A stretch of 64,000 bases of DNA from an uncultured Clostridia bacterium. Lineage in GTDB: Bacteria; Bacillota; Clostridia; Christensenellales; UBA1242. The stretch is from positions 3,670 through 67,669 of the forward strand of contig CAKNGB010000001.1 in assembly GCA_930971385.1 (NCBI GenBank), given 5' to 3'. Below the pieces are notes generated by a model. The model made no database searches and was not told the origin of the DNA. It worked only from the letters and a program-made list of their open reading frames with translations. Below, one piece after another: positions 5,665-57,412 of this stretch (position 1 is the stretch's first letter; every line of letters begins with the position of its first letter). Both the position numbers and the translations under genes were made by a program.

Positions 5665-7364
5665 TATTTAATTTCCAATTCTTGTTTAAATTTTTCAATC
5701 ATTTCATCATCAATACGCATAAAAAGTGGTTTTGGAGAAGAAATCTTATGCGCTTTTGAAATATTAATTATGCTTGCTTCTTCCCACATATCTTCGCTGT
5801 CAGGCGAGCTGGTAAAACCAAGTTGCTCCCAAATTTCCTTTGTTTTAGACGGAATGATTGGGCTTGCCACAATGGCGAGCGCCTTTGCCATGTTAAGCGA
5901 AAGGAATAAAACTTTCTTAGCGCCATCTAAATCTCCATTTTTAATCATTGACCAAGGCGCAGTTTTTTCAAGATAGGTGTTTCCAATTGAAGCGAAGCGC
6001 ATAATTTCTTTGTAGGCGTTTCTAAATTCGGTTTGTGAAAACATTTCAGCAATTGTTTTAGGGCAAGACTTTATTGCTTCCACCATTTCTTTGTCAAACT
6101 CGTTTAAGTTGTTTTTAATGTCGTCAAAGGAGATGCCAAGTTCTCCACCAAAATTCTTATTAATCATGTTAAGCGTTCTGTTGAAGAAATTGCCATATTT
6201 TCCCACAAGTTCGGCGTTGGTGTTAAGTTTAAAGCCTTCATAAGAAAAATCGCTGTCCTTATTTTCTGGGAAAATGGAAACGAGATAGGCTCTAAGTGCG
6301 TCAATATCCACATCGCTATTAAGCAAACTTTCGCAGAATATTCCCACCTTTTGAGATTTTGAAAATTTCTTGCCTTCAAAATTTAAGAAGTTGAAGCCAA
6401 CAACATTTTGTGCCAAGTTATATTTTCCACTTCCAAGTTCAATGCATGGGAAGAACACTGCGTGAAAGTCGATGTTATCTTTGCCGATAAAGTTGTAGAT
6501 TTCACATTCATCATTTTGCCAGCGGTCCTTAACCATTTCATTTCCACCAAGTTCTTTTGTGATGGAAATGTAGCCAATAGGCGCGTCAAACCACACATAG
6601 AAAACCTTATCTTCAAAATTTTTAAGTGGCACTTTAATTCCCCAAGGAATATCGCGGGTGATACATCTCGGCTTCAAGCCCTCATTTATCCATTTGTATG
6701 CCATATTGTAAACATAAGGGCGGAAGACATCCTTTTTGGAGTCTATCCAATTTTTAAGTTTATCTTGAAGTTTATCAAGGCGAATGTAAAGATGTTTAGT
6801 GTTCTTGAAAACGGCTTCGCGGTTGCACCAAACACATTTAGGATTTTTAAGTTCCTCTAAGTCATAAGTTTTTCCGCAGTTGTCGCACTGGTCGCCATAG
6901 GCTTTATCATATCCGCAATATGGGCAAACACCATAAACAAAACGGTCAGCAAGGGCAATCTTATCGTGTTCGCAATAGCACATCTTGCTTTCTTTTTCTG
7001 AAATATAACCGTTTTTGTTTAAGTCATTAAAAATCTCACAGGTCACTTCTTCGTGTGTTTTTGTGTTTGTTCCGCTGAAAATATCAAAGTTGATGTTCAA
7101 TCTTTTTGCAATATCTTTCATTTTGCCATTCATCATTTTGATATATTCGTTGATTTCCATATTCATGTTTTTAGCACTTATGAAACTTGCAGTGCCATAG
7201 TCATCCGTTCCGCTGACATAGATGGTGTCGTTGCCATAGGTCCTATTAAAACGCGCAAACACATCGCCAGGAAGCCAACATCCAGCCACGTGACCAAGGT
7301 GTGGCAAGCCATTAATGTATAACAGTGCCGAAGTCACCAAAATTTTTTTTCTTTTTTTATCCAT
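5664..7364 (-). CDS. metG: methionyl-tRNA synthetase
   Basis: Class I HIGH-type motif (LPHLGHV), KMSKS-type motif (KFSKS) and MetRS-type zinc knuckles (CPYCGY..CDNCGK). A GAGG RBS lies 6 nt before the ATG at 7364. An alternative ATG at 7376 overlaps the hisS stop (ATGA). Confidence 0.9.
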   Translation of the reverse strand: MDKKRKKILVTSALLYINGLPHLGHVAGCWLPGDVFARFNRTYGNDTIYVSGTDDYGTASFISAKNMNMEINEYIKMMNGKMKDIAKRLNINFDIFSGTNTKTHEEVTCEIFNDLNKNGYISEKESKMCYCEHDKIALADRFVYGVCPYCGYDKAYGDQCDNCGKTYDLEELKNPKCVWCNREAVFKNTKHLYIRLDKLQDKLKNWIDSKKDVFRPYVYNMAYKWINEGLKPRCITRDIPWGIKVPLKNFEDKVFYVWFDAPIGYISITKELGGNEMVKDRWQNDECEIYNFIGKDNIDFHAVFFPCIELGSGKYNLAQNVVGFNFLNFEGKKFSKSQKVGIFCESLLNSDVDIDALRAYLVSIFPENKDSDFSYEGFKLNTNAELVGKYGNFFNRTLNMINKNFGGELGISFDDIKNNLNEFDKEMVEAIKSCPKTIAEMFSQTEFRNAYKEIMRFASIGNTYLEKTAPWSMIKNGDLDGAKKVLFLSLNMAKALAIVASPIIPSKTKEIWEQLGFTSSPDSEDMWEEASIINISKAHKISSPKPLFMRIDDEMIEKFKQELEIK

Positions 7365-18286: not shown

Positions 18287-18318
18287 GTAAAAAAACTGCA
18301 CTCTTTGCTCGTTTTTGA

Positions 18319-18354
18319 CAAGTCAAAAAGCATCGCCTTTCAGTTTGTTTTTTT
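18319..18354 (+). terminator. terminator after the tRNA-fMet region, sharing a core with the terminator at 23632-23670
   Basis: Imperfect hairpin CAAGTCAAAAAGC atc GCCTTTCAGTTTG followed by T7. The 15-nt core AAAAGCATCGCCTTT is identical to 23643-23657. Confidence 0.55.
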
Positions 18355-19402: not shown

Positions 19403-21073
19403 TTATTTAACCTTAAACGAGTCTTTAAGCGAAATGGTGGAGTTAAAGATTAAGTTGTCTTTTGTGCTGTCTTTGTCAAGGCAATAGTAGCCTTTACGCA
19501 TAAATTGGAATTTATCTTCCACTTTTGCCGTTTTCAAAAAGTTTTCAGCAAATGCCACACTTTCTGTCATGGAATTTGGCGTTAAAAGTTCTTTAAGTGA
19601 AACTCCTTCTTCCAAGGCTTTCATAGGGTCAACATATTCCTCTTTAATAAGGTTTTTGAAATCACGAATGGTCACTTTAAAGCAATTTTTGGCAGAAACA
19701 AAGTGAATTGTTCCCTTGCATTTAATTCCAGAATTATCTTGTCCGCTTTTTGTGTTTGGAAGATACTCACATTCAAGGTGGTCAATCTCGCCATTGTCTT
19801 TTAAAACAGCCTTGTTGCATTTAATGATATACGCGCCTTTAAGCCTAACAATTCCGCCTTCCACAAGCCTGTTGTATTTTGGAGGTGGGTTCAAACTGAA
19901 ATCTTCCTTTTCAATGTAGATTTCTTTGCTAAATAGTGCCTTGTGAGAGCCAGCATTTTCGTCGTTAGGATTATTTTCAATTTCAATTTCCTCGCTGTCT
20001 TTATCATAGTTTGTGATGATAACTTTAAGTGGGTCCAAAACCACCATAGCGCGAGTGGCAATGTTGTTTAAGTCGTTTCTAATGTGATAGTAAAGCGCGG
20101 AAAGAGGGATAACGCTGTCGGCTTTCGTGACGCCAGCACTTTTTAAAAAGTCTTTTATTCCTTGCGCTGTGTAGCCACGCCTTTTCATGCCAACAATAGT
20201 TAAAAATCTTGGATCGTCCCAACCTAAAACAAGGTTCGAGTCCACAAGTCTTCTTAAATAGCGCTTGCCCAAAAGCACATTTTCAAGGTTGAGTTTTGCA
20301 AATTCAATTTGGCGTGGAGGATATGGCTTTTTCCAGCCTTTTTCAAGAACCCAGTTATACAGCGGGCGGTGGTCCTCAAAGCTCATGTCGCACAAACTGA
20401 AAGTGACACCTTCCAAGGCATCTTCAAGAGGGTGCGCAAAATCATACATAGGATAAATGCACCACTTATTTCCAGTGCGATAATGGCTCATGTGTTGAAC
20501 GCGGTAGATAACTGGGTCACGCATATTCATATTAGGGTGTGCCATGTCAATTTTTGCGCGTAAAACCACTTTCCCTTCTGGATATTTTCCTGCTTTCATG
20601 TCGCGAAAGATTTTCAAACTTTCCTCAATTGGTCTATTTCTATATGGGCTTTCCTTACCAGGAGTTGTCAGTGTTCCGCGAGATTTAGAAAGTTCCTCGG
20701 CACTTTGCTCGTCGATGTAAGCATCGCCACTTTTAATTAAGTTTTCTGCGATTTCATAAATTCCGTCAAAGTATGCTTCGCTGGCATAGACGAGTTTTTT
20801 TGGAGTGTAGCCCAGCCACTTAAGGTCGGCAAGATAACTGTCTGCAAAGTCGCCATCCTCTTTAGAAGGGTTTGTGTCGTCCATTCTAAGATAGGTGTAG
20901 CCACCATACTTTTTGGCGGTTTCAAAGTCAATCATAATCGCTTTGCAGTGCCCAATATGCCAATAGCCACTTGGTTCTGGTGGAAAGCGTGTGATGACCT
21001 CTTTTGCCTTTCCGCTTTCAAGGTCTTTGTTTATTTCTTCTTCAATAAAATTTGTCGGTTCAATAAGTTTCAT
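19403..21073 (-). CDS. glnS: glutaminyl-tRNA synthetase
   Basis: RFPPEPSGYWHIGH (GlnRS-type HIGH region). The 556-aa length and C-terminal beta-barrel anticodon-binding region are typical of GlnRS rather than GluRS. Confidence 0.85.
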   Translation of the reverse strand: MKLIEPTNFIEEEINKDLESGKAKEVITRFPPEPSGYWHIGHCKAIMIDFETAKKYGGYTYLRMDDTNPSKEDGDFADSYLADLKWLGYTPKKLVYASEAYFDGIYEIAENLIKSGDAYIDEQSAEELSKSRGTLTTPGKESPYRNRPIEESLKIFRDMKAGKYPEGKVVLRAKIDMAHPNMNMRDPVIYRVQHMSHYRTGNKWCIYPMYDFAHPLEDALEGVTFSLCDMSFEDHRPLYNWVLEKGWKKPYPPRQIEFAKLNLENVLLGKRYLRRLVDSNLVLGWDDPRFLTIVGMKRRGYTAQGIKDFLKSAGVTKADSVIPLSALYYHIRNDLNNIATRAMVVLDPLKVIITNYDKDSEEIEIENNPNDENAGSHKALFSKEIYIEKEDFSLNPPPKYNRLVEGGIVRLKGAYIIKCNKAVLKDNGEIDHLECEYLPNTKSGQDNSGIKCKGTIHFVSAKNCFKVTIRDFKNLIKEEYVDPMKALEEGVSLKELLTPNSMTESVAFAENFLKTAKVEDKFQFMRKGYYCLDKDSTKDNLIFNSTISLKDSFKVK

Positions 21074-21118
21074 ATTTTTCTCCTAAATTTAGTTTTTTCT
21101 TTTTAAGACAAATAAAAG

Positions 21119-21715
21119 TCACTGGACACCAAGTTTAAGGTTTTTAAGTTTACTTTTAATGCGTGTTAAACTGTTGTCTATGCTCTTTCCGCTGATTTTA
21201 AGAATTTCGGCTATCTCTTTGTAGGAATATCCTTGAAGATAATATCTTAAAACCTCAAACTCCTTTTTAGAAAGTGCTTTTTTGATTGTTAACACAAGGT
21301 TTTGATAGTTTTCTTTTTCCACCACGCGTTCGTCTGGCGACACTTGCATGATAAGGTTAACTGGCAAGAACTGCTCGTCGTCGGAATTATCAGAAAAACT
21401 TTGCAAGGAAACGGAATTTGAAAGGGGTGCGTTTTTCTTGGTGTTTGCTTTTTTAATTGCCGACTGAATTTGATGTTTGATGCAGGTGACAGCAAAGGTT
21501 TTAAAAGTGCTTTTGTTTTCTGAAAAATTTTTAATCGCCTTGTAAAGCCCAATCATGCCCTCTTGCACAATATCTTCAAGTTCTCCGCCGATGATAAAAT
21601 AACTTCTTGAAATTTTAACCACCAAATCTTTATATCTTTCAAGCAATGTGTTCTCAGCGTTTTCATCACCTTTTTTGGCAAGTTTAACAAGTTCTTCATC
21701 TGTCATTTTTTTCAT
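21119..21715 (-). CDS. sigH: RNA polymerase sigma factor, SigH (Spo0H)-like
   Basis: RSYFIIGGELEDIVQEGMIGLYKAIKNF and the C-terminal region 4 (SYKEIAEILKISGKSIDNSLTRIK) closely resemble my recollection of B. subtilis SigH. Start is uncertain (21715 or 21733). Confidence 0.8.
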   Translation of the reverse strand: MKKMTDEELVKLAKKGDENAENTLLERYKDLVVKISRSYFIIGGELEDIVQEGMIGLYKAIKNFSENKSTFKTFAVTCIKHQIQSAIKKANTKKNAPLSNSVSLQSFSDNSDDEQFLPVNLIMQVSPDERVVEKENYQNLVLTIKKALSKKEFEVLRYYLQGYSYKEIAEILKISGKSIDNSLTRIKSKLKNLKLGVQ

Positions 21716-21787
21716 GCTTATAATATAACACATTTAAAGTGAAATGTGTCCAATTTTTTTTAAATTTTTCGTAATTTTTATAAGATA

Positions 21788-21814
21788 TAAAAAAATCAAG
21801 CATTTTCGCTTGAT
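21788..21814 (-). terminator. terminator between the ankyrin gene and sigH
   Basis: ATCAAGC gaaaat GCTTGAT followed by T7 on the minus strand. Confidence 0.65.
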
Positions 21815-21824
21815 AATTTATCTT

Positions 21825-22499
21825 TTAATGAATATATGCCACTTCGTTTGGTTTGAAAATTTGCATTAAGCTTTCCTTTAAAACGGAAAATCTACAGATG
21901 TCGCAAGGCGTTTTGTTTTGTTTGTTTTTAACAAGCGTCGCACCATTAGAGTAAAAGAGGTCAGAAAAGTTGCAGGCGTCTTGAAGAGTGGTGTTTTGCA
22001 TAGCGTAATGCCAAGGTGTGTCACCAAATTTATTCTGCACATCAATCGCTCGTTTTTCCTTTTCCACAAACATTTCGCTTATAGCATAATTTCCAGCAAA
22101 TGAGGAAATGTGAAGAGGTGTGTCGCCGTTATTATTCTTTTCTAAAATAAGCCTTGGGTTTTTTCTTGATAAGTAATTTGCAATTTCAAATTGGTTCAAA
22201 AATGAAGCCACATGAAGCGGAGTGTTTCCTTTATTATTTTTTACCTTTAAATTTGCACCTTTTTCCACCAAAAATTTTACCATTTCAAAATTCCTGTCGT
22301 AAATTGCATAGTGCAAGGCGGTGTTTCCAAATTTATCCTTCTCGTCCATGTTAAAAGTGGCTTGTTTAAGGTTATTAATAAATCCTCTATCATTTTCAAA
22401 AACTGCAAAGTGAAAAGCGCCTTGGTCAAATGGTCTAAAATAATTTGTCATCATGCCGTCAACTTTATAGATTGTTTTTTTCGCTTTTTTATAGTTCAT
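21825..22499 (-). CDS. ankyrin-repeat protein
   Basis: At least four ANK repeats (GNTALHYAI..MVKFLVEKGANL; KGNTPLHVAS; NGDTPLHISS; FGDTPWHYA). GGAGG RBS. No signal peptide. Confidence 0.85.
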   Translation of the reverse strand: MNYKKAKKTIYKVDGMMTNYFRPFDQGAFHFAVFENDRGFINNLKQATFNMDEKDKFGNTALHYAIYDRNFEMVKFLVEKGANLKVKNNKGNTPLHVASFLNQFEIANYLSRKNPRLILEKNNNGDTPLHISSFAGNYAISEMFVEKEKRAIDVQNKFGDTPWHYAMQNTTLQDACNFSDLFYSNGATLVKNKQNKTPCDICRFSVLKESLMQIFKPNEVAYIH

Positions 22500-22690
22500 A
22501 CATCCTCCATAGACTAAGTTTACACCATGAAAAAAGCAAAGTCAATATGTTATGAAAATTTAATTTGTATTTTTGAAAAATTCGCCAGAAATTATATATT
22601 TTATCAAAAGTAAGTGTGTTTTTAATGTTTTTTTAACTTTTTATTCAATTATTACATAATATTTTTAATAATTTTAAGCAAAATAATGGC

Positions 22691-23179
22691 ATGAAAAAGA
22701 AATTTTTGTGCTTACTTTTAATTTTTTCCATGCTCGTATTGGGTGGTTGTTTTGCTAAAAATATTAGTTCAGCAAACATTGTGCGTGATGAGGCGAAGGT
22801 GGGAGGAAGTTTAAGTTTTGTTTATAACCATAATGATAGGTGCGCTTATATTGGTGGCGAGGGCGAATTTATGGAGTTCTACAAAGGTGATTTGTCGCTT
22901 TCGGCGGGCAATCGTGTGGGGCTTAAAGTGATTGCACCAAGTGAGGTTAAGGACTATGGCAAAGTGACGCTTGAAATGGGCGGACAAAGTTATTCCGACT
23001 TATTCCAAGTGGTTTCAGGGCAAAAACAAAACTACTTTTACATCTATCCTGCGTTCAGTGAGGAAAATCGCGAGGTAAGCATAAAAATTAATTGGGCGGA
23101 TGATATTGAAAGCCAAGAATATAAGGTCTACATTGTCAGTGGCACAAAGTTTTTAAATGAAAACGGCGAGGTTGTTTAA
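22691..23179 (+). CDS. lipoprotein, function unknown
   Basis: Signal peptide with lipobox MLVLGGC. Confidence 0.7.
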   Translation: MKKKFLCLLLIFSMLVLGGCFAKNISSANIVRDEAKVGGSLSFVYNHNDRCAYIGGEGEFMEFYKGDLSLSAGNRVGLKVIAPSEVKDYGKVTLEMGGQSYSDLFQVVSGQKQNYFYIYPAFSEENREVSIKINWADDIESQEYKVYIVSGTKFLNENGEVV

Positions 23180-23308
23180 TGTTGAATTGTGAGCTAATTT
23201 CTGGTTTAAAATTAAGTGAAATCCTATCAAATAATTTATTTAGCCTAAAATATTAGTTGAATTATAGGTCAGCAATAAAAAAATATTAAAAAATATCTTG
23301 AAAAACAC

Positions 23309-23338
23309 TTGACAAAACCTTTTTTCATAGGCTATAAT
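23309..23338 (+). promoter_or_regulatory. consensus promoter of tRNA-Glu and the downstream structured RNA
   Basis: TTGACA (23309-23314), 18-nt spacer, TATAAT (23333-23338). Confidence 0.65.
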
Positions 23339-23357
23339 GACTTAGCGTAAGAAATTT

Positions 23358-23432
23358 GGTCTCGTGGTCAAGAGGTTAAGACACCGCCCCTTCACGGCGG
23401 TATCAGGGGTTCGATTCCCCTCGAGATCACCA
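23358..23432 (+). tRNA. tRNA-Glu (anticodon TTC)
   Basis: Hand-folded cloverleaf GGTCTCG/CGAGATC, anticodon stem CCGCC/GGCGG, T-arm AGGGG-TTCGATT-CCCCT, encoded CCA. The anticodon loop reads CCTTCAC, i.e. C rather than the near-universal U at position 33. Confidence 0.85.
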
Positions 23433-23440
23433 AAAAATTA

Positions 23441-23589
23441 GGACAGACACCAACATCGTTTAACGCGGGCACGGAAAACAAGTTTCCTAACCGCTACTAT
23501 GTTGGTTTCTCCGCCTAGTCCTCTTCCGCGTAGGTGATTTTCAATTTATGCTTGTCGGGCAAAGCCCTTCTTCAAGCAAAATTGAAAAT
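23441..23589 (+). ncRNA. unclassified structured RNA, family A copy 1
   Basis: Begins 8 nt after tRNA-Glu and ends before the terminator at 23632-23670. Module 1 is an extended hairpin: P1 23449-56/23499-506, P2 GCGG/CCGC 23465-68/23491-94, P3 GGAAA/TTTCC 23473-77/23483-87. Module 2 is the hairpin 23537-23589. It is homologous to 25935-26191 (minus strand) with compensatory changes. Confidence 0.6.
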
Positions 23590-23631
23590 TAATTAAGATA
23601 CATTTTTAATTACCAATATAATTATATAAGT

Positions 23632-23670
23632 AAACAAGTTCGAAAAGCATCGCCTTTTGCTTGTTTTTTT
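23632..23670 (+). terminator. rho-independent terminator of the tRNA-Glu / family A RNA transcript
   Basis: AAACAAG...CTTGTTT stem with inner AAAAGC atc GC(C)TTTT, followed by T7. Confidence 0.65.
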
Positions 23671-23674
23671 GTTT

Positions 23675-23845
23675 CACGACCAAACGCAACTCGCAAACGC
23701 TTTCGAGTTGGTCGTGACTTACGAGGTTTTGATTATAGTAAAGTTATGTAGGAATCGAACGGGCGGTAAAGAAAAGTTGCCGGTGTGCAAGTTTTCTCCG
23801 CCCCGGCGTGAAAGCGGAATAACTTAGTTGGACGGGTTACTAATG
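23675..23845 (-). ncRNA. GC-rich structured element immediately downstream of comFC (family B copy 2); candidate ncRNA
   Basis: Hairpin 23675-23716 (CACGACCAA..CAACTCG / CGAGTTGGTCGTG). Hairpin 23761-23803 (GGGCGG-AGAAAAgTTGC / GCAAgTTTTCT-CCGCCC). T-loop-like GTTCGATTCC on the minus strand (23751-23760). Collinear similarity to 18166-18263. Strand is tentative. Confidence 0.4.
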
Positions 23846-24649
23846 TTAAAGTTCAACATTTTCGTTTTCTTCCTTTTTTAATGCGTTTCTGGCAAGAGCG
23901 CACACAAAGATATTGTTTGCGTGTTTTGAAAGTATTTTCGCGCAGGTATTTAAGGTGGCACAGGTGGTTATGATGTCATCCACAATCAAAACATTTTTGT
24001 TTTTCACAAGCTCTTTATCTTTCAAATTAAAAACGCTTAAAAGGTTCTTTTGCCTTTCAAGATAATTTAAAGTTTTTTGTGATTTTGTTTCAGAAACTTT
24101 TTCCAAGGTTTCAAGGCACGGCAAGTTTAAAATTTTGGCAAGATTTTTAGCAAGGAGTTTCGATTGATTGAAACTTCTTTCTTTTTCTTTTCTTTTCGTC
24201 ATTGGCACATAGGTTATAAGGTCAATTTTCCAGCCCTTTATTTCTTTGGCAATAATTATTGCATAGCCTTTGGCAAGATACCGCTTATTGTCAGATTTAT
24301 ATGAAAGCAAACTTTTCCTTACTAAATCTTTATATAAAAAGGGTGCTCTTGCCTTTTTAAAATATCGCTTATTTTTTTGGCAGTGGTCGCAAATAACCGC
24401 TTCATTCCCTATCGGCTCGTCGCAAATTAAACATCTTTTTCCATCGTTTTTAGGCAATAATTTTTCACAATTAGAGCAATAAGGTTTCTCATAAAAGGAG
24501 GGGATGTCGCGCCCACAAAAAACACATTTAATATCATCAGGGAAAATTAATTTATTAAAAAAAATTGATATTTTCTTAAAAATATCATATTTTTTACGTT
24601 TTTTTTGAGTTTTTTCCTTATTTTTTAATGATTTTTTCATATTTTTCAT
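23846..24649 (-). CDS. comFC: ComF family protein (phosphoribosyltransferase domain, N-terminal CxxC zinc finger), paralog 1
   Basis: CVFCGR..CSNC..CLIC..CDHC zinc-finger cysteines and the PRTase motif VLIVDDIITTCAT. Confidence 0.85.
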   Translation of the reverse strand: MKNMKKSLKNKEKTQKKRKKYDIFKKISIFFNKLIFPDDIKCVFCGRDIPSFYEKPYCSNCEKLLPKNDGKRCLICDEPIGNEAVICDHCQKNKRYFKKARAPFLYKDLVRKSLLSYKSDNKRYLAKGYAIIIAKEIKGWKIDLITYVPMTKRKEKERSFNQSKLLAKNLAKILNLPCLETLEKVSETKSQKTLNYLERQKNLLSVFNLKDKELVKNKNVLIVDDIITTCATLNTCAKILSKHANNIFVCALARNALKKEENENVEL

Positions 24650-24651
24650 TT

Positions 24652-25383
24652 TTATTTATTTTTCATAAGTCTTTGGCGGACAATTTCATAGACCACAATT
24701 CCAGCCGAAACACTGGCGTTAAGTGAGTTTACTTTGCCAAAAAGTGGAAGAGAGATAACGTCGTCACAATATGCCTTTATGCTTTGTTTTGTGCCTTTGC
24801 CTTCAGAGCCGATAACAATGCCAATTTTTCCTGTGAGGTCGGTTTTGTAGATATCCTTTCCGCCAATTTCAGCGGAGTATATCCAAAGTCCGTTTTCTTT
24901 CAGCGCGTCAATCGCTTCTTTCAAATTTGTGACGCGAGCAATTCTCATGTTGCTGACAGCACCAGCACTTGTTCTTATCACAGTTTCATTCACTTGGCAA
25001 GCGCGCATTTTTGGAAGTATTATTCCATGCACGCCAGCACACTCGCAGGAGCGGATGATTGCGCCAAGGTTATGCGGGTCCTCAATTCCGTCGAGAAGCA
25101 CAACAAAAGCGTCTTCATTTTTCTCTTTGGCATAGTTTAGAATGTCGTCAACATCACAGTAAGAAAAATCCACAGTTTCAGCAATATATCCTTGATGATG
25201 TGAGGTGACTGAAATTTTGTCTAAAACATTTTTTGGCACAAACTCACACTTAATTTTCATGCTTTTTGCTTCTCGGATGATTTCATCTTTACGAGAGGCA
25301 TAGTTTTTGTCGATATAGATTTTGTTTATCGTTTTTTCGCTTTTAAGAGCCTCTAAAACCTGATTTCTTCCTTCAATATTCAT
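24652..25383 (-). CDS. rlmB: TrmH/SpoU-family 23S rRNA 2'-O-methyltransferase, RlmB-like
   Basis: N-terminal EGRNQVLEAL substrate-binding domain and SpoU methylase motifs (DGIEDPHNLGAIIRS, IGSEGKG, LNASVSAGI). Overlaps mrnC by 4 nt. Confidence 0.85.
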   Translation of the reverse strand: MNIEGRNQVLEALKSEKTINKIYIDKNYASRKDEIIREAKSMKIKCEFVPKNVLDKISVTSHHQGYIAETVDFSYCDVDDILNYAKEKNEDAFVVLLDGIEDPHNLGAIIRSCECAGVHGIILPKMRACQVNETVIRTSAGAVSNMRIARVTNLKEAIDALKENGLWIYSAEIGGKDIYKTDLTGKIGIVIGSEGKGTKQSIKAYCDDVISLPLFGKVNSLNASVSAGIVVYEIVRQRLMKNK

Positions 25384-25757
25384 ACTTCCTCGCTAACTGA
25401 AATTTTTAAGATTTCTTTCAATCTTTCCTTTTGCTCTGTCAGATACAAGAACCCAACAAGCGCTTCAAAAGCGGTGGCTTTTTTATACTCTTCTTCATTA
25501 AAGTTTTTTGCTTTGTGTTTAGACTTAGCATTTCTTGCACGCCTCACAATTTCGCTTTCTTCAAAAGATAGCATTGGCAAAAGTTTTTCAAGCACTTCCT
25601 TTTGATGTTTGGCGTTGCAGAACTTTTTTGCTTTTTGATGATAGTAATTTAAATTTGAAATGCCACCTTTAACAACAAATTCACGGACAAACAATGTGTG
25701 CACGCCGTCGCCAATAAACGCTAAGGCGAGAGGGGAGAGGTTGTCAATTTTTTCCAT
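25380..25757 (-). CDS. mrnC: mini-ribonuclease III
   Basis: LAFIGDGVHTLFVRE and ATAFEALVGFLYL RNase III signature residues. 125 aa with no dsRBD. Confidence 0.85.
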   Translation of the reverse strand: MEKIDNLSPLALAFIGDGVHTLFVREFVVKGGISNLNYYHQKAKKFCNAKHQKEVLEKLLPMLSFEESEIVRRARNAKSKHKAKNFNEEEYKKATAFEALVGFLYLTEQKERLKEILKISVSEEV

Positions 25758-25934
25758 GTTTTTCCTTTTATATAAACTTTATTGTTTTTCATGTTTTGTG
25801 TAAAGACATAATCTTTTAATTTTTAGCAAACCGCATTCTTTAAGCAATGAGTGAAGGATTGAAGAAGATTTTTGAAAACAATATAAATATAATTAAACCA
25901 TTTTGCCAGCAACTACCACTTACATACTCTAAAC

Positions 25935-26191
25935 AATTTTTGATTTTGCGAGGGGAAGGGCTTTGCCCGTCGAGCATAAATCAAAAATTAAATGGGGACA
26001 CCGAAAATGTTTATCATTTTTGGGGATAAGGAGTAAACAAACGAAATGGTAAGTGTTTTGAATACTTTCAAAGCACGAAATGAAGTGCTGTTTGCGACGC
26101 GGATGAGGATTGGGATGGGAAACCAACGTAGTAGCCGTTAGGGAAGCCACTCCTTCCCGTGTCGGCGTTAAGCGAAGTTGGTGTCCGCACC
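25935..26191 (-). ncRNA. unclassified structured RNA, family A copy 2 (with a 104-nt insertion)
   Basis: Starts 3 nt after the ychF stop codon and lies in the 437-nt gap upstream of mrnC. Module 1 is 26094-26191 (P2 GCCG/CGGC, P3 GGGAAG/CTTCCC). Module 2 is 25935-25989 (12-bp outer stem AATTTTTGATTT/AAATCAAAAATT, apical GGGC-aaa-GCCC). The insertion is 25990-26093. Confidence 0.6.
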
Positions 26192-26194
26192 AAT

Positions 26195-27289
26195 CTAGTT
26201 GTTAAATCTAAAAAGCACAACATCGCCGTCTTGCATCACATAGTCTTTGCCTTCCATTCTCACTTTGCCTTTTTCTTTTGCGCGTAAAAACGAGCCTGCT
26301 TCCACAAGGTCGTCATAGGAAACAATTTCCGCTTTGATGAAACCTTTTTCAAAATCGGAGTGAATTTTTCCAGCAGCCTGAGGTGCTTTTGTGCCTTTGT
26401 GAATGGTCCACGCGCGCACTTCTTTTTCGCCAGCAGTGATATAACTCATAAGCCCAAGAAGGTCATAACTTGCCACAACAAGTTTTTCTAGTCCTGACGA
26501 TTTAATGCCAAGTTCGTCTTTAAACATCTGCCTTTCGTCTTTGTCGAGTTTAGCAATTTCCTCTTCAATTTTGGTGCAGAGGGCGACCACTTTGGCGTTT
26601 TCTTTTTCCGCCACTTTTTTCACTTCCTCCACAAACTTATTTGTTTCTTTTGCCAAATCTTCTTCGCCGATATTGGCAACATAGATAACTGGTTTCATGG
26701 TTAAAAGTGAGAAGTTCTTTAAGATTTTTTCTTCGTCCTCTGAATATTGCAAACTTCTTGCACGACCGCCTTTTTCAAGCACCTCTTTAATTCTTTTCAT
26801 AACTTCAACCGTTGTCAGCAAGGTTTTGTCGCCAGTTTGCTTTGAAAGTTTTGCATTTTTTTCAATCACCTTTTCCACTTGCTCTAGGTCGGAAAGCGCC
26901 AGTTCCATTTCAATGGTTTCAATGTCGCGCACAGGATTAATCGAGCCTGAAACGTGGATGATTTTGTCGTTTTCAAAACATCTAACAACGTGCACAATGG
27001 CGTCAACTTCGCGGATATGGCTTAAAAATTTGTTGCCAAGCCCTTCGCCATGACTGGCACCAGCCACAAGCCCTGCAATATCCACAAACTCAATGCTTGC
27101 AGGCGTAATCTTTTGCGTGTTATACATTTTTCCCAAAACATTCAGCCTTTCATCTGGCACATCCACCACGCCGATGTTTGGCTCGATTGTGCAGAAAGGA
27201 TAGTTCGCACTTTCTGCACCAGCGTCAGTTATTGCATTAAACAAGGAACTTTTTCCCACATTAGGAAGCCCCACAACTCCAATTTTCAT
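26195..27289 (-). CDS. ychF: redox-regulated ATPase YchF
   Basis: [14 protein letters not shown]-loop, a TGS-like C-terminal domain, 364 aa. GGAG RBS before the ATG at 27289; the track start at 27295 is GTG. Confidence 0.92.
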
Positions 27290-27479
27290 AAACACTCCAT
27301 GATGTTATATTAATAATTTTTTGATTATCTTTGATATTATAGCAAATTTGAAAAGTTTTTTCAATTAAAGTGGTGTAAAAAATATGATATTTTCTTTTGT
27401 CAACCGATATTTTTAATAAAATTATGCTGTTTTCCTTTAAAATTAAAGTGAAAAAGAAAAGGGAACGGTTTTCCGCTTC

Positions 27480-46238: not shown

Positions 46239-47027
46239 TTAATCATCTTTGTTTTCATCTTTTAAGATGTTTCTGGCAACGCCTGCAACGCTGACACTTT
46301 TTGCATATTTTGCAATAAGTTTACTGCAAGTGTCCATAGTGGCGCAAGTGGTTATTATGTCGTCAACAAGTAGAACACGCATATCATCAATTTCCTTTTC
46401 GTTCACAATTCTAAAACAGTTTGAAAGATTTTTCTTTCTTTCGTTAAAATTGAGTTTTTTCTGCTCTTTGGTTTCAGAAATTTTAATTAAACACTTGCAA
46501 ATTTTAAGATTGGAAATTTTTGCAAGTTCTTCTGCAAGAAGTTTTGATTGATTAAACGAGCGTTCTTTTTCCTTTTTCTTGGTCATAGGCACAAAGGTTA
46601 TAACATCAAAATTTTTGAAATCTTCGCCGATATAGTTATAGATAAACTTGGCATAACTTTTTGCCAAATATCTTCGATTGTTCATCTTATAGGAAAGTAA
46701 ACTTTGGCGCACAATTCCTTCATAAATAAACGGGCAGTATGCACGCTTAAAACTTCGCTTTTGTTTTTGGCAACGGTCGCAGATAATTGCTTCGTTTCCA
46801 ATTTTTTCATCGCAAATTCTGCACCTATTTCCATCATTTTTAACAAGTTTTTTGGCGCACTTTTCGCAGTAGGGTTGTTCTTCAAAATTATTTATATCTC
46901 TTCCGCAAAATATGCACTTGATGTTGTCAGGGAAAAGCATGGCATCGAAAAAATTAACAAATTTTGCCCAAAAATTTGTTAATTTTTGATATTTTTTTGT
47001 GTTTTTTGCAGTTTTAGCCATTTTCAT
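46239..47027 (-). CDS. comFC: ComF family protein (PRTase domain + zinc finger), paralog 2
   Basis: Collinear with the 23846-24649 product (FPDNIKCIFCGRDI.., LLVDDIITTCATMDTC). Overlaps the recD2 stop by 14 nt. Confidence 0.85.
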   Translation of the reverse strand: MKMAKTAKNTKKYQKLTNFWAKFVNFFDAMLFPDNIKCIFCGRDINNFEEQPYCEKCAKKLVKNDGNRCRICDEKIGNEAIICDRCQKQKRSFKRAYCPFIYEGIVRQSLLSYKMNNRRYLAKSYAKFIYNYIGEDFKNFDVITFVPMTKKKEKERSFNQSKLLAEELAKISNLKICKCLIKISETKEQKKLNFNERKKNLSNCFRIVNEKEIDDMRVLLVDDIITTCATMDTCSKLIAKYAKSVSVAGVARNILKDENKDD

Positions 47028-55210: not shown

Positions 55211-57412
55211 TTATATTTTTTCAGTTGTATTTTTCGCTCTGCCTAAAAGTTCATTTTTAAGTTCGCTAAACTTTGGTGGCAATTCAAGTTTTGTTAATGA
55301 GTTGTTATTTGTTAATAAATCATCACCAATTTGTTGAACATTAGGCAATTCAAGTTCTGTTAATGATCTGTTATTATTTAAGAAATTACGACCAATTTGT
55401 TGAATATTAGGAAGATTAAGTTCTGTTAATGATTTGTTATTTAATAAGAAAAAAGCACCAATTTTTTGAACATTAGGAAGATTTAGTTCTGTTAATGATT
55501 CGTTAAAATGTAAGAAACTATTACCAATTTTTTGAACATTAGGAAGATTTAGTTCTGTTAATGATCTGTTATAGAATAAGAAGTCACCACCAATTTGTTG
55601 AACATTAGGCAATTCAAGGCTTTTTAATGATTTGTTATTATATAAGAAATCATCACCAATTTGTTGAACGTTAGGAAGATTAAGTTCTTTTAATGAGTTG
55701 TTACCTAATAAGAAATCATTACCAATTTTTTGAACATTAGGAAGATAAAGTTCTGTTAATGATTCGTTATAACGTAAGAAATTAACACCAATTTGTTGAA
55801 CATTAGGCAATTCAAGTTTTGTTAATGAGTTGTTGTTATATAAGAAATTATCACCAATTTGTTGAACATTAGGAAGATTTAGTTCTGTTAATGATCCGTT
55901 ATAGAATAAGAAATTATCACCAATTTGTTGAACATTAGGAAGATTAAGTTCTGTTAATGATTCGTTATAACGTAAGAAATAATCACCAATTTCTCTAACA
56001 TTAGGAAGATTAAGTTCTGTTAATGATTCGTTATAACGTAAGAAACAATCACCAATTTGTCGAACATTAGGCAATTCAAGTTTTGTTAATGAGTTGTTAG
56101 ATTCTAAGAACCACCTAGCAATATATTGAACATTAGGAAGATTAAGTTCTGTTAATGATTTGTTATTTAATAAGAAGCCACCATCAATTTGTTGAACATT
56201 AGGCAATTCAAGTTTTGTTAATGATTTGTTATAACGTAAGAAACTATCACCAATTTGTTGAACATTAGGAAGATAAAGTTCTGTTAATGATCTGTTAACA
56301 AGTAAGAAGTTATCATAAATTTTAATTATATTTGGATTTGAGTATCCAACAATTTGGTTATGATTATCAAGTTTAATTTCAACAAGTTCTCCCTCTTCTG
56401 GTGTGATTTGAATGGTCAGTCCGTCCTTACTTGGAATGCGTTTAATATTTTTAATTTTGTCAACACTTTTTGGAAACGAGTCTGCAAATTCATCAACTGA
56501 ACTTGAATGGTATTGTTTTAATTTTTTGTTCTCAATATCTAAAATAAAATTCTCAAGAACAATAAATTTATCTTTGTTAAATTGTTTAACTTCTCCATTG
56601 TCAATAATGATGTTATTTGGGCAATAATAAACATTGTCAATTTCAAAGTTATATTTATAAAACTTTCCATCACCTGCTTGCACATAGTCTGGAATTTCCA
56701 GTGGATTTATTTTTTTGTTTGATAGCTTAATGTTATATTTATCCGTAAATGCCTGTGTCAATCCTTCAATTATGTTGTCTAGGTTATTGCTAAATGTGGC
56801 ATCTGGGTTAACATCGTGAATGGTGTGGTTATATCTATTTTTTATGGAAAGAGTGCTTGGTTTTGTTTTTGTGAATTGAATGCTGATAACGCTTGTGCCA
56901 TAGTCATCTTCTCTTCTTGGGTTTTTAAAGTCTTCTCGTTTTATCTTATCCACATCTTTTCTAACAGCAAACCACACTCGGCAAGTATTAAGCCTTCCAC
57001 CATTAAAAGTGCAAAGTTCTTCGCCTTCACGGTAAGCTGGTGTGCCACCAGTATATTTTGGTGTTGGCTCGCCACGATAATAATAATGCCTAAAACTTTG
57101 AATATCTTTTTCAGTTTGACATTCTGGATAAAGTATGTAGCCAGCTCTATCCATAAGTTCTTCAGGAGATAAGTTAGTTTTTTTACCATATTTGTTTTCA
57201 AAATTAGCTTGGCTATAAACATAGTTCTTAAACTCGGCTGTTAAATCTCTGCTAGTTATATCATCATAAAGTTCTCGGCTTGGCAAAAAAGAGTTTTCAA
57301 GTATTTTTGGCAACAAGCCTTCTGTGTCAAGAATGGTTGGAAAGAGTTCTCGACATAAATGCGAAAATTTTTCGCCATAGTGTTTTTTAATCCATTTTAA
57401 ATCTTTTTCCAT
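55211..57412 (-). CDS. leucine-rich-repeat protein (BspA/TpLRR-like 22-aa repeats) with an unrecognised ~360-aa N-terminal domain
   Basis: About 16 consecutive repeats with consensus LTELNLPNVQQIGDNFLxxNxS. No signal peptide or TM segment. The ATG lies 2 nt after the stop of the upstream 97-aa ORF. Confidence 0.85.
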   Translation of the reverse strand: MEKDLKWIKKHYGEKFSHLCRELFPTILDTEGLLPKILENSFLPSRELYDDITSRDLTAEFKNYVYSQANFENKYGKKTNLSPEELMDRAGYILYPECQTEKDIQSFRHYYYRGEPTPKYTGGTPAYREGEELCTFNGGRLNTCRVWFAVRKDVDKIKREDFKNPRREDDYGTSVISIQFTKTKPSTLSIKNRYNHTIHDVNPDATFSNNLDNIIEGLTQAFTDKYNIKLSNKKINPLEIPDYVQAGDGKFYKYNFEIDNVYYCPNNIIIDNGEVKQFNKDKFIVLENFILDIENKKLKQYHSSSVDEFADSFPKSVDKIKNIKRIPSKDGLTIQITPEEGELVEIKLDNHNQIVGYSNPNIIKIYDNFLLVNRSLTELYLPNVQQIGDSFLRYNKSLTKLELPNVQQIDGGFLLNNKSLTELNLPNVQYIARWFLESNNSLTKLELPNVRQIGDCFLRYNESLTELNLPNVREIGDYFLRYNESLTELNLPNVQQIGDNFLFYNGSLTELNLPNVQQIGDNFLYNNNSLTKLELPNVQQIGVNFLRYNESLTELYLPNVQKIGNDFLLGNNSLKELNLPNVQQIGDDFLYNNKSLKSLELPNVQQIGGDFLFYNRSLTELNLPNVQKIGNSFLHFNESLTELNLPNVQKIGAFFLLNNKSLTELNLPNIQQIGRNFLNNNRSLTELELPNVQQIGDDLLTNNNSLTKLELPPKFSELKNELLGRAKNTTEKI
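55270..56330 (-). repeat. 66-nt tandem coding repeat array (about 16 units) inside the LRR gene
   Basis: Near-identical DNA units such as TTGTTGAACATTAGGAAGATTAAGTTCTGTTAATGA recur every 66 nt. Confidence 0.85.

Follow-up and report, generated by a model that had tools for sequence, protein, structure and literature searches.

Units of the REP type are GC-rich palindromes of ~35 nt that occur in hundreds of copies and are tied to RAYT transposases, and families of the bcr1 and Correia type carry terminal inverted repeats and/or target-site duplications (TTTAT for bcr1, TA for Correia). REP and BIME repeats reportedly act on mRNA 3' stability, attenuation and terminating ribosomes. The subject of this analysis is a structured element, here called family A, with two copies in a window of 64,000 nt (the whole stretch of DNA analyzed) from an uncultured Clostridia bacterium, one beside a tRNA-Glu gene and one between ychF and mrnC. 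BOX elements have fixed end modules and an optional internal boxB that folds independently; SPRITE repeats consist of a long duplex with a U-rich tract, are enriched at the 3' ends of coding sequences and may be co-opted as terminators; and pneumococcal repeats mirror the coding bias in their orientation and cluster together (PMC3049150). The bcr1 (Bacillus cereus group), ERIC/IRU and Correia families are transcribed repeats of 100–200 nt with long hairpins, found in Firmicutes and Proteobacteria (background in PMC3049150).

We consider it fairly probable that family A is a lineage-specific family of modular, hairpin-forming interspersed mosaic repeats and not a single-locus RNA gene. The family is previously undescribed and its kind is already known (BOX, SPRITE, REP/BIME, bcr1). 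It was placed in this class because its copies are multiple and dispersed, its modules are exchangeable, it clusters with other repeats, copies are gained, lost or replaced between strains within one lineage, sense copies sit at 3' ends, and the hairpins are maintained by compensatory changes; dispersal, modular build with repeat clustering, and presence/absence or replacement among strains are the marks of mosaic repeats of the BOX/BIME type. An earlier note on this DNA had pictured a discrete RNA gene that belongs with tRNA-Glu and has a single paralogue. The family was found instead as a dispersed modular repeat in at least ten unrelated contexts, with presence and absence among strains and with antisense copies. 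Binding to the locus is likewise contradicted by L001, a related metagenome-assembled genome (MAG) that keeps module 1 alone at both window sites, and by distant relatives that carry no element.

Copies, modules and fold

Copy 1 and its surroundings comprise the following features.

23309..23338, + strand: sigma-70-type promoter of tRNA-Glu, TTGACA-18-TATAAT, 12 of 12 consensus positions
23358..23432, + strand: tRNA-Glu(UUC) with encoded CCA (ARAGORN; Rfam tRNA, 60.3 bits), the upstream transcription unit of copy 1
23435..23610, + strand: family-A repeat copy 1, short form (module 1, linker, module 2); covariance model R1 184 bits, E=1e-44; 14-sequence alignment A6
23439..23517, + strand: module 1 of copy 1, a hairpin shaped like a rod (P0a/P0b/P1/P2/P3); it has a YUAAC bulge, and its internal loop is ACAC/UAA
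23518..23535, + strand: linker of copy 1, UCCUCUUCCGCGUAGGU, CU-rich and single-stranded, the insertion point of the optional central module in long forms
23536..23590, + strand: module 2 of copy 1, an AU-rich stem of 14 bp capped by a 4-bp GC apex that covaries, with a U/A-rich tail after it; -23.7 kcal/mol, z = -4.7
23632..23745, + strand: T module, a separate repeat module with a weak terminator hairpin and U7, then the hairpin CACGACCAA..TTGGTCGTG and the end GGTTTTGATTATAG

Copy 2 lies on the opposite strand, with the following features.

25380..25757, - strand: mrnC (Mini-RNase III), the first gene downstream of copy 2
25758..25914, - strand: remaining inserted intergenic DNA from module 2 to the mrnC start, holding degenerate downstream modules and, at 25909–25880, a weak site resembling a promoter
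25915..26196, - strand: family-A repeat copy 2, long form, beginning right after the ychF stop codon; covariance model R1 178 bits, E=4e-43
25935..25989, - strand: module 2 of copy 2, an AU-rich hairpin with a GGGC/GCCC apex
25990..26096, - strand: optional central module of copy 2, ~105 nt, also in both L005 copies and L007 and absent from short forms
26111..26192, - strand: module 1 of copy 2, the rod hairpin
26195..27295, - strand: ychF, the gene upstream of copy 2

Copy 1 begins 3–7 nt after the 3' end of tRNA-Glu, and the earlier note was right to place the segment beside this gene and its consensus promoter. The two copies are homologous and align collinearly, also as claimed there (copy 1 with the minus strand of 25915–26196), copy 2 carrying an extra ~105 nt between the hairpin modules. 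Two conserved blocks of 23–24 nt occur exactly twice in the 64-kb window (0 expected from 100 shuffles), and covariance model R1 detected no third copy there. Most of the 437-nt ychF-mrnC spacer is copy 2, with the operon mrnC-rlmB-comF downstream; copy 1 is convergent with this operon, so that the copies form an inverted pair around it. The promoter-like site at 25909–25880 agrees with the consensus at 9 of 12 positions and is the only such call in downstream modules within the window. A promoter was dropped as a general feature of these modules, the window site being weak and none being called in L026.

The structure was derived from alignment A6, which comprises 14 distinct copies from related metagenomic genomes, by RNAalifold consensus; all related sequences in this study are metagenome contigs. 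The consensus fold has two domains with 39 pairs in six helices, and 16 of these pairs show double-sided changes (3–4 when the 3' partners were slid by 1–3 columns). Standard pairs occupied 97.7% of cells (88.5% in column shuffles) and the covariation score was 0.296 (0.132 in column shuffles), values that 0 of 500 shuffles reached in either case. The folding energy of copy 1 is -51.9 kcal/mol (z = -4.8).

Compensatory changes in P2 and P3 had been read correctly from the two window copies and recur among the 14 sequences. In the outer stem of module 2 two neighboring pairs have changed, C-G becoming U-A and A-U becoming G-C, where the earlier note had read a C-G to G-C flip. The apical GGGC-aaa-GCCC, taken to be conserved in sequence, varies across the family by covariation (GAAC/GUUC, GGAC/GUCC, GAGC/GCUC). 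Among the internal loops, the YUAAC bulge and ACAC/UAA are conserved, and TCGyTTAAC/TACTA gives way to continuous pairing in one subfamily (L013_b, L025, L031). The P1 motif AAC/GTT is present in all aligned copies; copy 2 has lost one of the inner P1 pairs (A-U to U.C). The search pattern used on the metagenomes fixed the 3' half of module 1, whose invariance, including UCCUC, is therefore partly by construction.

Each unit combines a rod hairpin of ~80 nt (module 1) with a linker rich in C and U, a central module of ~105 nt that is optional, and module 2, whose AU-rich hairpin carries a U-rich tail; the total is 176–282 nt at 34–45% GC. Long, short and module-1-only forms were found, and several copies carry additional common modules 3' of module 2. 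Copies L013_a and L007_a, from the same locus, differ in their central module and in the 3' strand of P0 and are of mixed origin. A direct ATTG/ATTA repeat at both element ends was considered as a duplication and rejected, since it belongs to P0 and the module 2 stem.

On the sense strand 21 cells are G.U and 4 are A.C, and one column alone supplies 12 of the 21 G.U cells; the antisense fold is no less stable than the sense fold. Neither this count nor the comparison of sense and antisense minimum free energies decides which strand is folded. After module 2 comes CACAAACAGGG in antisense orientation, where a U tract is lacking, and UUGUUUUA-like tails in sense orientation.

No known RNA family was matched, in agreement with the earlier note: Rfam 15, at gathering thresholds and at E<=10 for both copies, gave only tRNA matches in the window, and only a 16S fragment on three related loci. 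That note had also concluded that covarying stems with conserved loops mark a functional RNA. The fold is indeed real and selected; a dedicated functional RNA is not established by that signature, because structured mobile repeats show conserved loops and covarying stems too.

Genomic contexts and strain differences

The family was sought by pattern scans. A strict scan of one genome per species, demanding P1 and loop sequence, returned one MAG (L001); a looser scan of metagenome contigs returned 11 loci; and viral contigs gave 0 matches. A phage or plasmid origin was rejected after blastn searches ('distant') of phage and plasmid collections gave no match. Four contigs of sample ERZ1643251, at 70–76x coverage, together carry at least five copies (L024, L025, L027, L028 and L032, which equals L007); their shared coverage suggests that they come from one genome.

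With all loci counted, the element was found in ten different genomic contexts, eight sense and two antisense. In seven of the eight sense contexts it starts 0–8 nt after the upstream unit, which is tRNA-Glu, ychF or a gene for a class A penicillin-binding protein (PBP), a List_Bact-repeat protein, SpoIVB, TauE or TypA; the eighth copy follows a T module. One antisense copy lies between spoIIIAE and spoIIIAF, inside the spoIIIA operon, and this copy (L026) had no called promoter of its own. The other (L030, 1–420) lies in a 16S rRNA leader and abuts the mature 16S 5' end; from a TTGACA-18-TAAAAT promoter ~330 nt upstream, transcription of 16S would run through the antisense element. Both antisense contexts are inside transcription units that must be read through. 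At the SpoIVB locus (L027, 4344–5576, - strand) the open reading frame (ORF) extends 27 nt into the element and stops at the TAA of the GCTTAAC motif, so that the element has taken the place of the native C-terminus and stop codon. A tyrosine recombinase gene (L027, 2979–4022, - strand) lies 170 nt downstream of the same copy.

The nearest species-level genome, L001 (an uncultured Clostridia bacterium MAG), shares ~87% DNA identity with the window; at both sites it carries module 1 and has no module 2, and its first copy is without an intact tRNA upstream. Syntenic contigs (L002–L021) were gathered through MrnC homologues, and at the tRNA-Glu site they differ as follows.

L002 (MrnC 95% identical): tRNA-Glu, then other sequence; element absent
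L005: long-form copy, with two T modules between tRNA-Glu and the copy
L007: no element after tRNA-Glu
L013: short-form copy after tRNA-Glu

The tRNA-Glu site is therefore filled in the window and L013 and empty in L002 and L007. The spoIIIAE-spoIIIAF site holds the element in L035 and L036 and other repeats instead in L033 and L034, with SpoIIIAF 99% identical. In relatives L010–L012 and L016–L021 ychF and mrnC are spaced by 10 nt with no element, their MrnC is 66–68% identical, and their ychF-mrnC-rlmB-sigH-glnS block is compact. Judged by these sequences the ychF copy is an insertion confined to one clade, because relatives at 66–68% MrnC identity have the 10-nt spacing and no element.

Comparison of window 19403–27295 with L010, L016 and L019 showed that in the window's clade the compact block is split by the repeat and a block of ~3.6 kb, which contains comF, T and X modules, tRNA-Glu, a 162-aa ORF and an ankyrin-repeat gene. 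Between subclades the tRNA-Glu segment has opposite orientations: L007 and L013 have it co-directional with the operon, and the window, L002 and L005 have it convergent. Two comF-like paralogues, each with a double zinc ribbon and a phosphoribosyltransferase domain, lie at 23846–24649 and 46239–47027 (both - strand; ~67% DNA identity). The one beside rlmB is missing in relatives with the compact rlmB-sigH arrangement and so belongs to the inserted, rearranged block.

The segment 23632–23670 within the T module, called a terminator in the earlier note, is an AU-rich hairpin with a U7 tail; the hairpin is weak (-9.9 kcal/mol, z = -1.2) and was not called in a terminator scan of the window. It is plausibly the native tRNA-Glu terminator, since the same segment directly follows tRNA-Glu in strains L005 and L007; the T module as a whole stands directly 3' of tRNA-Glu in strains without copy 1. 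T modules, which also take in a tRNA trailer, were located in L001 (1–365), L002 (8060–8330) and L005 (8425–8800) as well. In relatives a 3' fragment of tRNA-Glu has been duplicated together with them, a pattern suggestive of integrase-type rearrangements at this gene. A degenerate T module with a stub like a tRNA 3' end lies at window 18289–18354, 170 nt after tRNA-Met. The window segment 23741–23839, GGAATCGAACGGGCGG...CCGCCCCGGCGTGAAAGCGGAA, is GC-rich and structured-looking and is kept in L001, L002 and L005; its reverse complement has a motif similar to a tRNA T-arm, and neither ARAGORN nor Rfam gave a match to it.

Another repeat family, in which each unit joins GTGAAGG to a variable 5–6-bp GC hairpin and CA, was seen as single units beside family-A copies. 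About nine units stand in tandem between spoIIIAE and spoIIIAF (L037, about 1960–2300), and single units were located in L026 (1540–1600), L007 (about 5850–5910) and L033 (2245–2500). The many AAGGA motifs between these hairpins look like the design of a CsrA sponge.

The window itself is core chromosome (gyrA/B, several aminoacyl-tRNA synthetases, secA, RF1, SSB). It also holds a tandem repeat of 66-nt period at 55212–56435 (15 overlapping 300-nt copies reported, 65–85% identity) within a 733-aa ORF (55211–57412, - strand) that probably encodes a repetitive surface or structural protein.

Competing explanations and proposed mechanism

Several observations weigh against the mosaic-repeat reading. 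Filled and empty tRNA-Glu and spoIIIAE-spoIIIAF sites differ by replacement of flanking DNA, with no clean insertion junction, and no target-site duplication was definable at them. No terminal inverted repeats were definable, since AYTGGKRCRGACACC at the 5' end is not an inverted copy of ..AAAAATTGTTTT or ..GGTTTTGATTATAG at the 3' ends. Scanning of 30 window ORFs with Pfam showed housekeeping genes only and no transposase or integrase, and no autonomous parent element was found among them. The copy number is low (2 in 64 kb), and the orientation bias of 8 to 2 rests on few loci. The tail of module 2 has 4–7 U in 8 nt and its stem base is AU-rich, and a terminator scan did not call it. The copies within a genome are, judged by their ~75–85% identity, old. 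Module 1 of orthologous copy 1 is 100% identical between the window and L001 over 89 nt, with flanks at 86%, and such conservation above the flanks appears to fit purifying selection or host function better than recent selfish spread.

That last observation also favors the view that family A is a multi-copy structured noncoding RNA, either like a small RNA or as part of a ribonucleoprotein, released from tRNA and mRNA 3' ends. In such an RNA, module 1 would bind a protein through YUAAC and ACAC/UAA, the linker UCCUCUUCC would serve as a seed resembling an anti-Shine-Dalgarno sequence, and module 2 would be the terminator. Strong covariation in both domains, the conserved loop sequences and the retention of module 1 at both L001 sites despite loss of module 2 all favor it, as do the sense orientation in 8 of 10 contexts and the excess of G.U over A.C cells (21 to 4). 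However, 12 of those 21 cells come from one column and the antisense fold is equally or more stable, the invariance of UCCUC stems from the search pattern itself, and two contexts are antisense within other transcripts. The L026 copy has no promoter of its own, and the other copies lie in 3' untranslated regions or a tRNA trailer. Near-identical strains also differ in presence, sister lineages are without the element, and its mosaic association with other repeat modules is typical of repeats. We regard this explanation as rather unlikely. The element could instead act at the DNA level, as a folded single-stranded substrate of a recombinase, either attC-like for a tyrosine recombinase or with REPIN/IS200-like ends for a Y1 transposase, the RNA fold being incidental; this seems to us quite unlikely. 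Hairpins with conserved bulges and covarying stems, the constant AAC/GTT in P1, placement right after or overlapping stop codons as at attC sites, duplicated tRNA 3' fragments near tRNA-Glu (typical of integrase activity) and an antisense strand that folds as well as the sense strand are all consistent with it, and the L027 copy has its tyrosine recombinase gene 170 nt away. Yet such a gene adjoins 1 of 10 contexts, and the attC consensus is matched incompletely, P1 CACCAAC/GTTGGTT agreeing with R'' (RYYYAAC) at 5 of 7 positions and with R' (GTTRRRY) at 6 of 7. The window showed neither cassette arrays nor an integron integrase, core housekeeping genes (ychF, typA, PBP, spoIVB) lie upstream of the element, and no Y1 transposase was seen among the 30 window ORFs. 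The units are far larger than REP or attC sites, and their boundaries show no defined cleavage or target motif.

Two further proposals fare worse. Copy 2 stands upstream of mrnC on the same strand and is structured, so a locus-specific leader of mrnC-rlmB-comF, akin to a riboswitch or attenuator, with copy 1 as a duplicate, might be envisaged. The distribution of copies effectively refutes it and leaves it highly improbable: relatives have the 10-nt ychF-mrnC spacer and no leader upstream of mrnC, the element follows many unrelated genes and a tRNA elsewhere, Rfam gave no riboswitch or T-box match, and L001 has no module 2 at the ychF-mrnC site. Autoregulation by Mini-III, or mimicry of the 23S 5' end, was entertained on a resemblance only and was rejected on the spacer-free relatives and the unrelated upstream genes. 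A protein-coding remnant was suggested by a frame (..TPTSFNAGTENKFPNRYYVGF..) that is open in both window copies and both L001 copies, with several synonymous differences, a 3-nt indel between the window copies and a broken P1 pair that coincides with two synonymous changes. This was rejected, and its probability is practically negligible, because a TAA interrupts the frame in L013_b, the loop of P3 varies in length between copies by 1, 2, 4 and 10 nt and hence not in multiples of three, and the differences fall on paired positions and are compensatory; copy 1 also has no start codon after the tRNA. A more speculative proposal, which we hold to be unlikely, is that family A is a mobile RNA module with its own function (a portable 3'-end cassette, freed from the 3' ends of tRNAs and mRNAs, whose rod binds a specific host protein and whose anti-Shine-Dalgarno-like linker seed acts in trans) or a folded single-stranded DNA site of a non-integron tyrosine recombinase of Clostridia that inserts at stop codons and tRNA ends. 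Either version, if true, would explain why the copies are under stronger constraint than their flanks.

For a family of interspersed mosaic repeats, the reading preferred here, the following mechanism is proposed. The element would be co-transcribed as a 3' trailer of tRNA-Glu and ychF. Its RNA hairpins would then act in an orientation-dependent manner, attenuating or terminating transcription and barring 3' exonucleases; within the trailers of tRNAs and mRNAs the transcribed element probably has the role of attenuator, terminator or 3'-end protector. Tight spacing to stop codons may also influence terminating ribosomes, and the same hairpins, as DNA, may be required for spread through a recombinase, a transposase or recombination between copies. 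Sense copies at unit ends and antisense copies in read-through units (8 and 2 contexts) fit an orientation-dependent polar effect.

Annotation of these blocks of ~180–280 nt, which occur in uncultured gut Clostridia (Candidatus Caccovivens-like MAGs), should treat them as a family of repeats and not as novel RNA genes or riboswitches; the covariation of such repeats would otherwise mislead RNA-discovery pipelines. The family also marks rearrangement hot spots, namely the tRNA-Glu region and the break-up of the ancestral ychF-mrnC-rlmB-sigH-glnS block, and its elements probably reshape transcription-unit boundaries. Should the copies prove to be selected RNA modules or recombination sites, they would offer a tractable portable 3'-end element, with a fold captured by covariance model R1.

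Comparison with known systems

Family A resembles integron attC sites in its imperfect hairpins, conservation of structure over sequence, position at or overlapping the upstream stop codon, fixed orientation and basal AAC/GTT. It differs from them in having no full R''/R' and, in the window, no integron integrase or cassette arrays, and in its core upstream genes and extra modules. It is also like bcr1, ERIC/IRU and Correia repeats, which alter the processing or stability of neighboring mRNA according to orientation (background in PMC3049150); unlike bcr1 and Correia repeats, it has neither terminal inverted repeats nor a target-site duplication that could be demonstrated. With REP/BIME repeats of enterobacteria and with REPINs it shares mosaic palindromic units in 3' untranslated and intergenic regions, often within ~15 nt of a stop codon. 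Its units are, in contrast to REP and REPIN units, 80–280 nt long, AT-rich and low in copy number, with no RAYT/Y1 transposase among the window ORFs.

Like the BOX elements of Streptococcus pneumoniae (boxA-boxB(n)-boxC), family A is a composite repeat with fixed ends and an optional self-folding internal module; both are predicted to form stable RNA stem-loops, and both are intergenic, clustered with other repeats and strain-variable, BOX being co-transcribed as family A probably is (PMC3049150). BOX elements have terminal inverted repeats thought to match ISSpn2, whereas none were seen in family A, which has far fewer copies and tighter placement (0–8 nt after stop codons or the tRNA end). 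The likeness is one of architecture, sequence homology not being expected for a host in a distant Clostridia lineage. Module 2 recalls SPRITE repeats in its 14-bp stem and 4-bp apex, its tail of 4–7 U in 8 nt and its predicted termination, as does the element in its sense orientation in 8 of 10 contexts, seven of which place it 0–8 nt after a stop codon or tRNA end; in family A, unlike SPRITE, the terminator-like hairpin is one module of a larger unit with a separate, strongly covarying rod hairpin.

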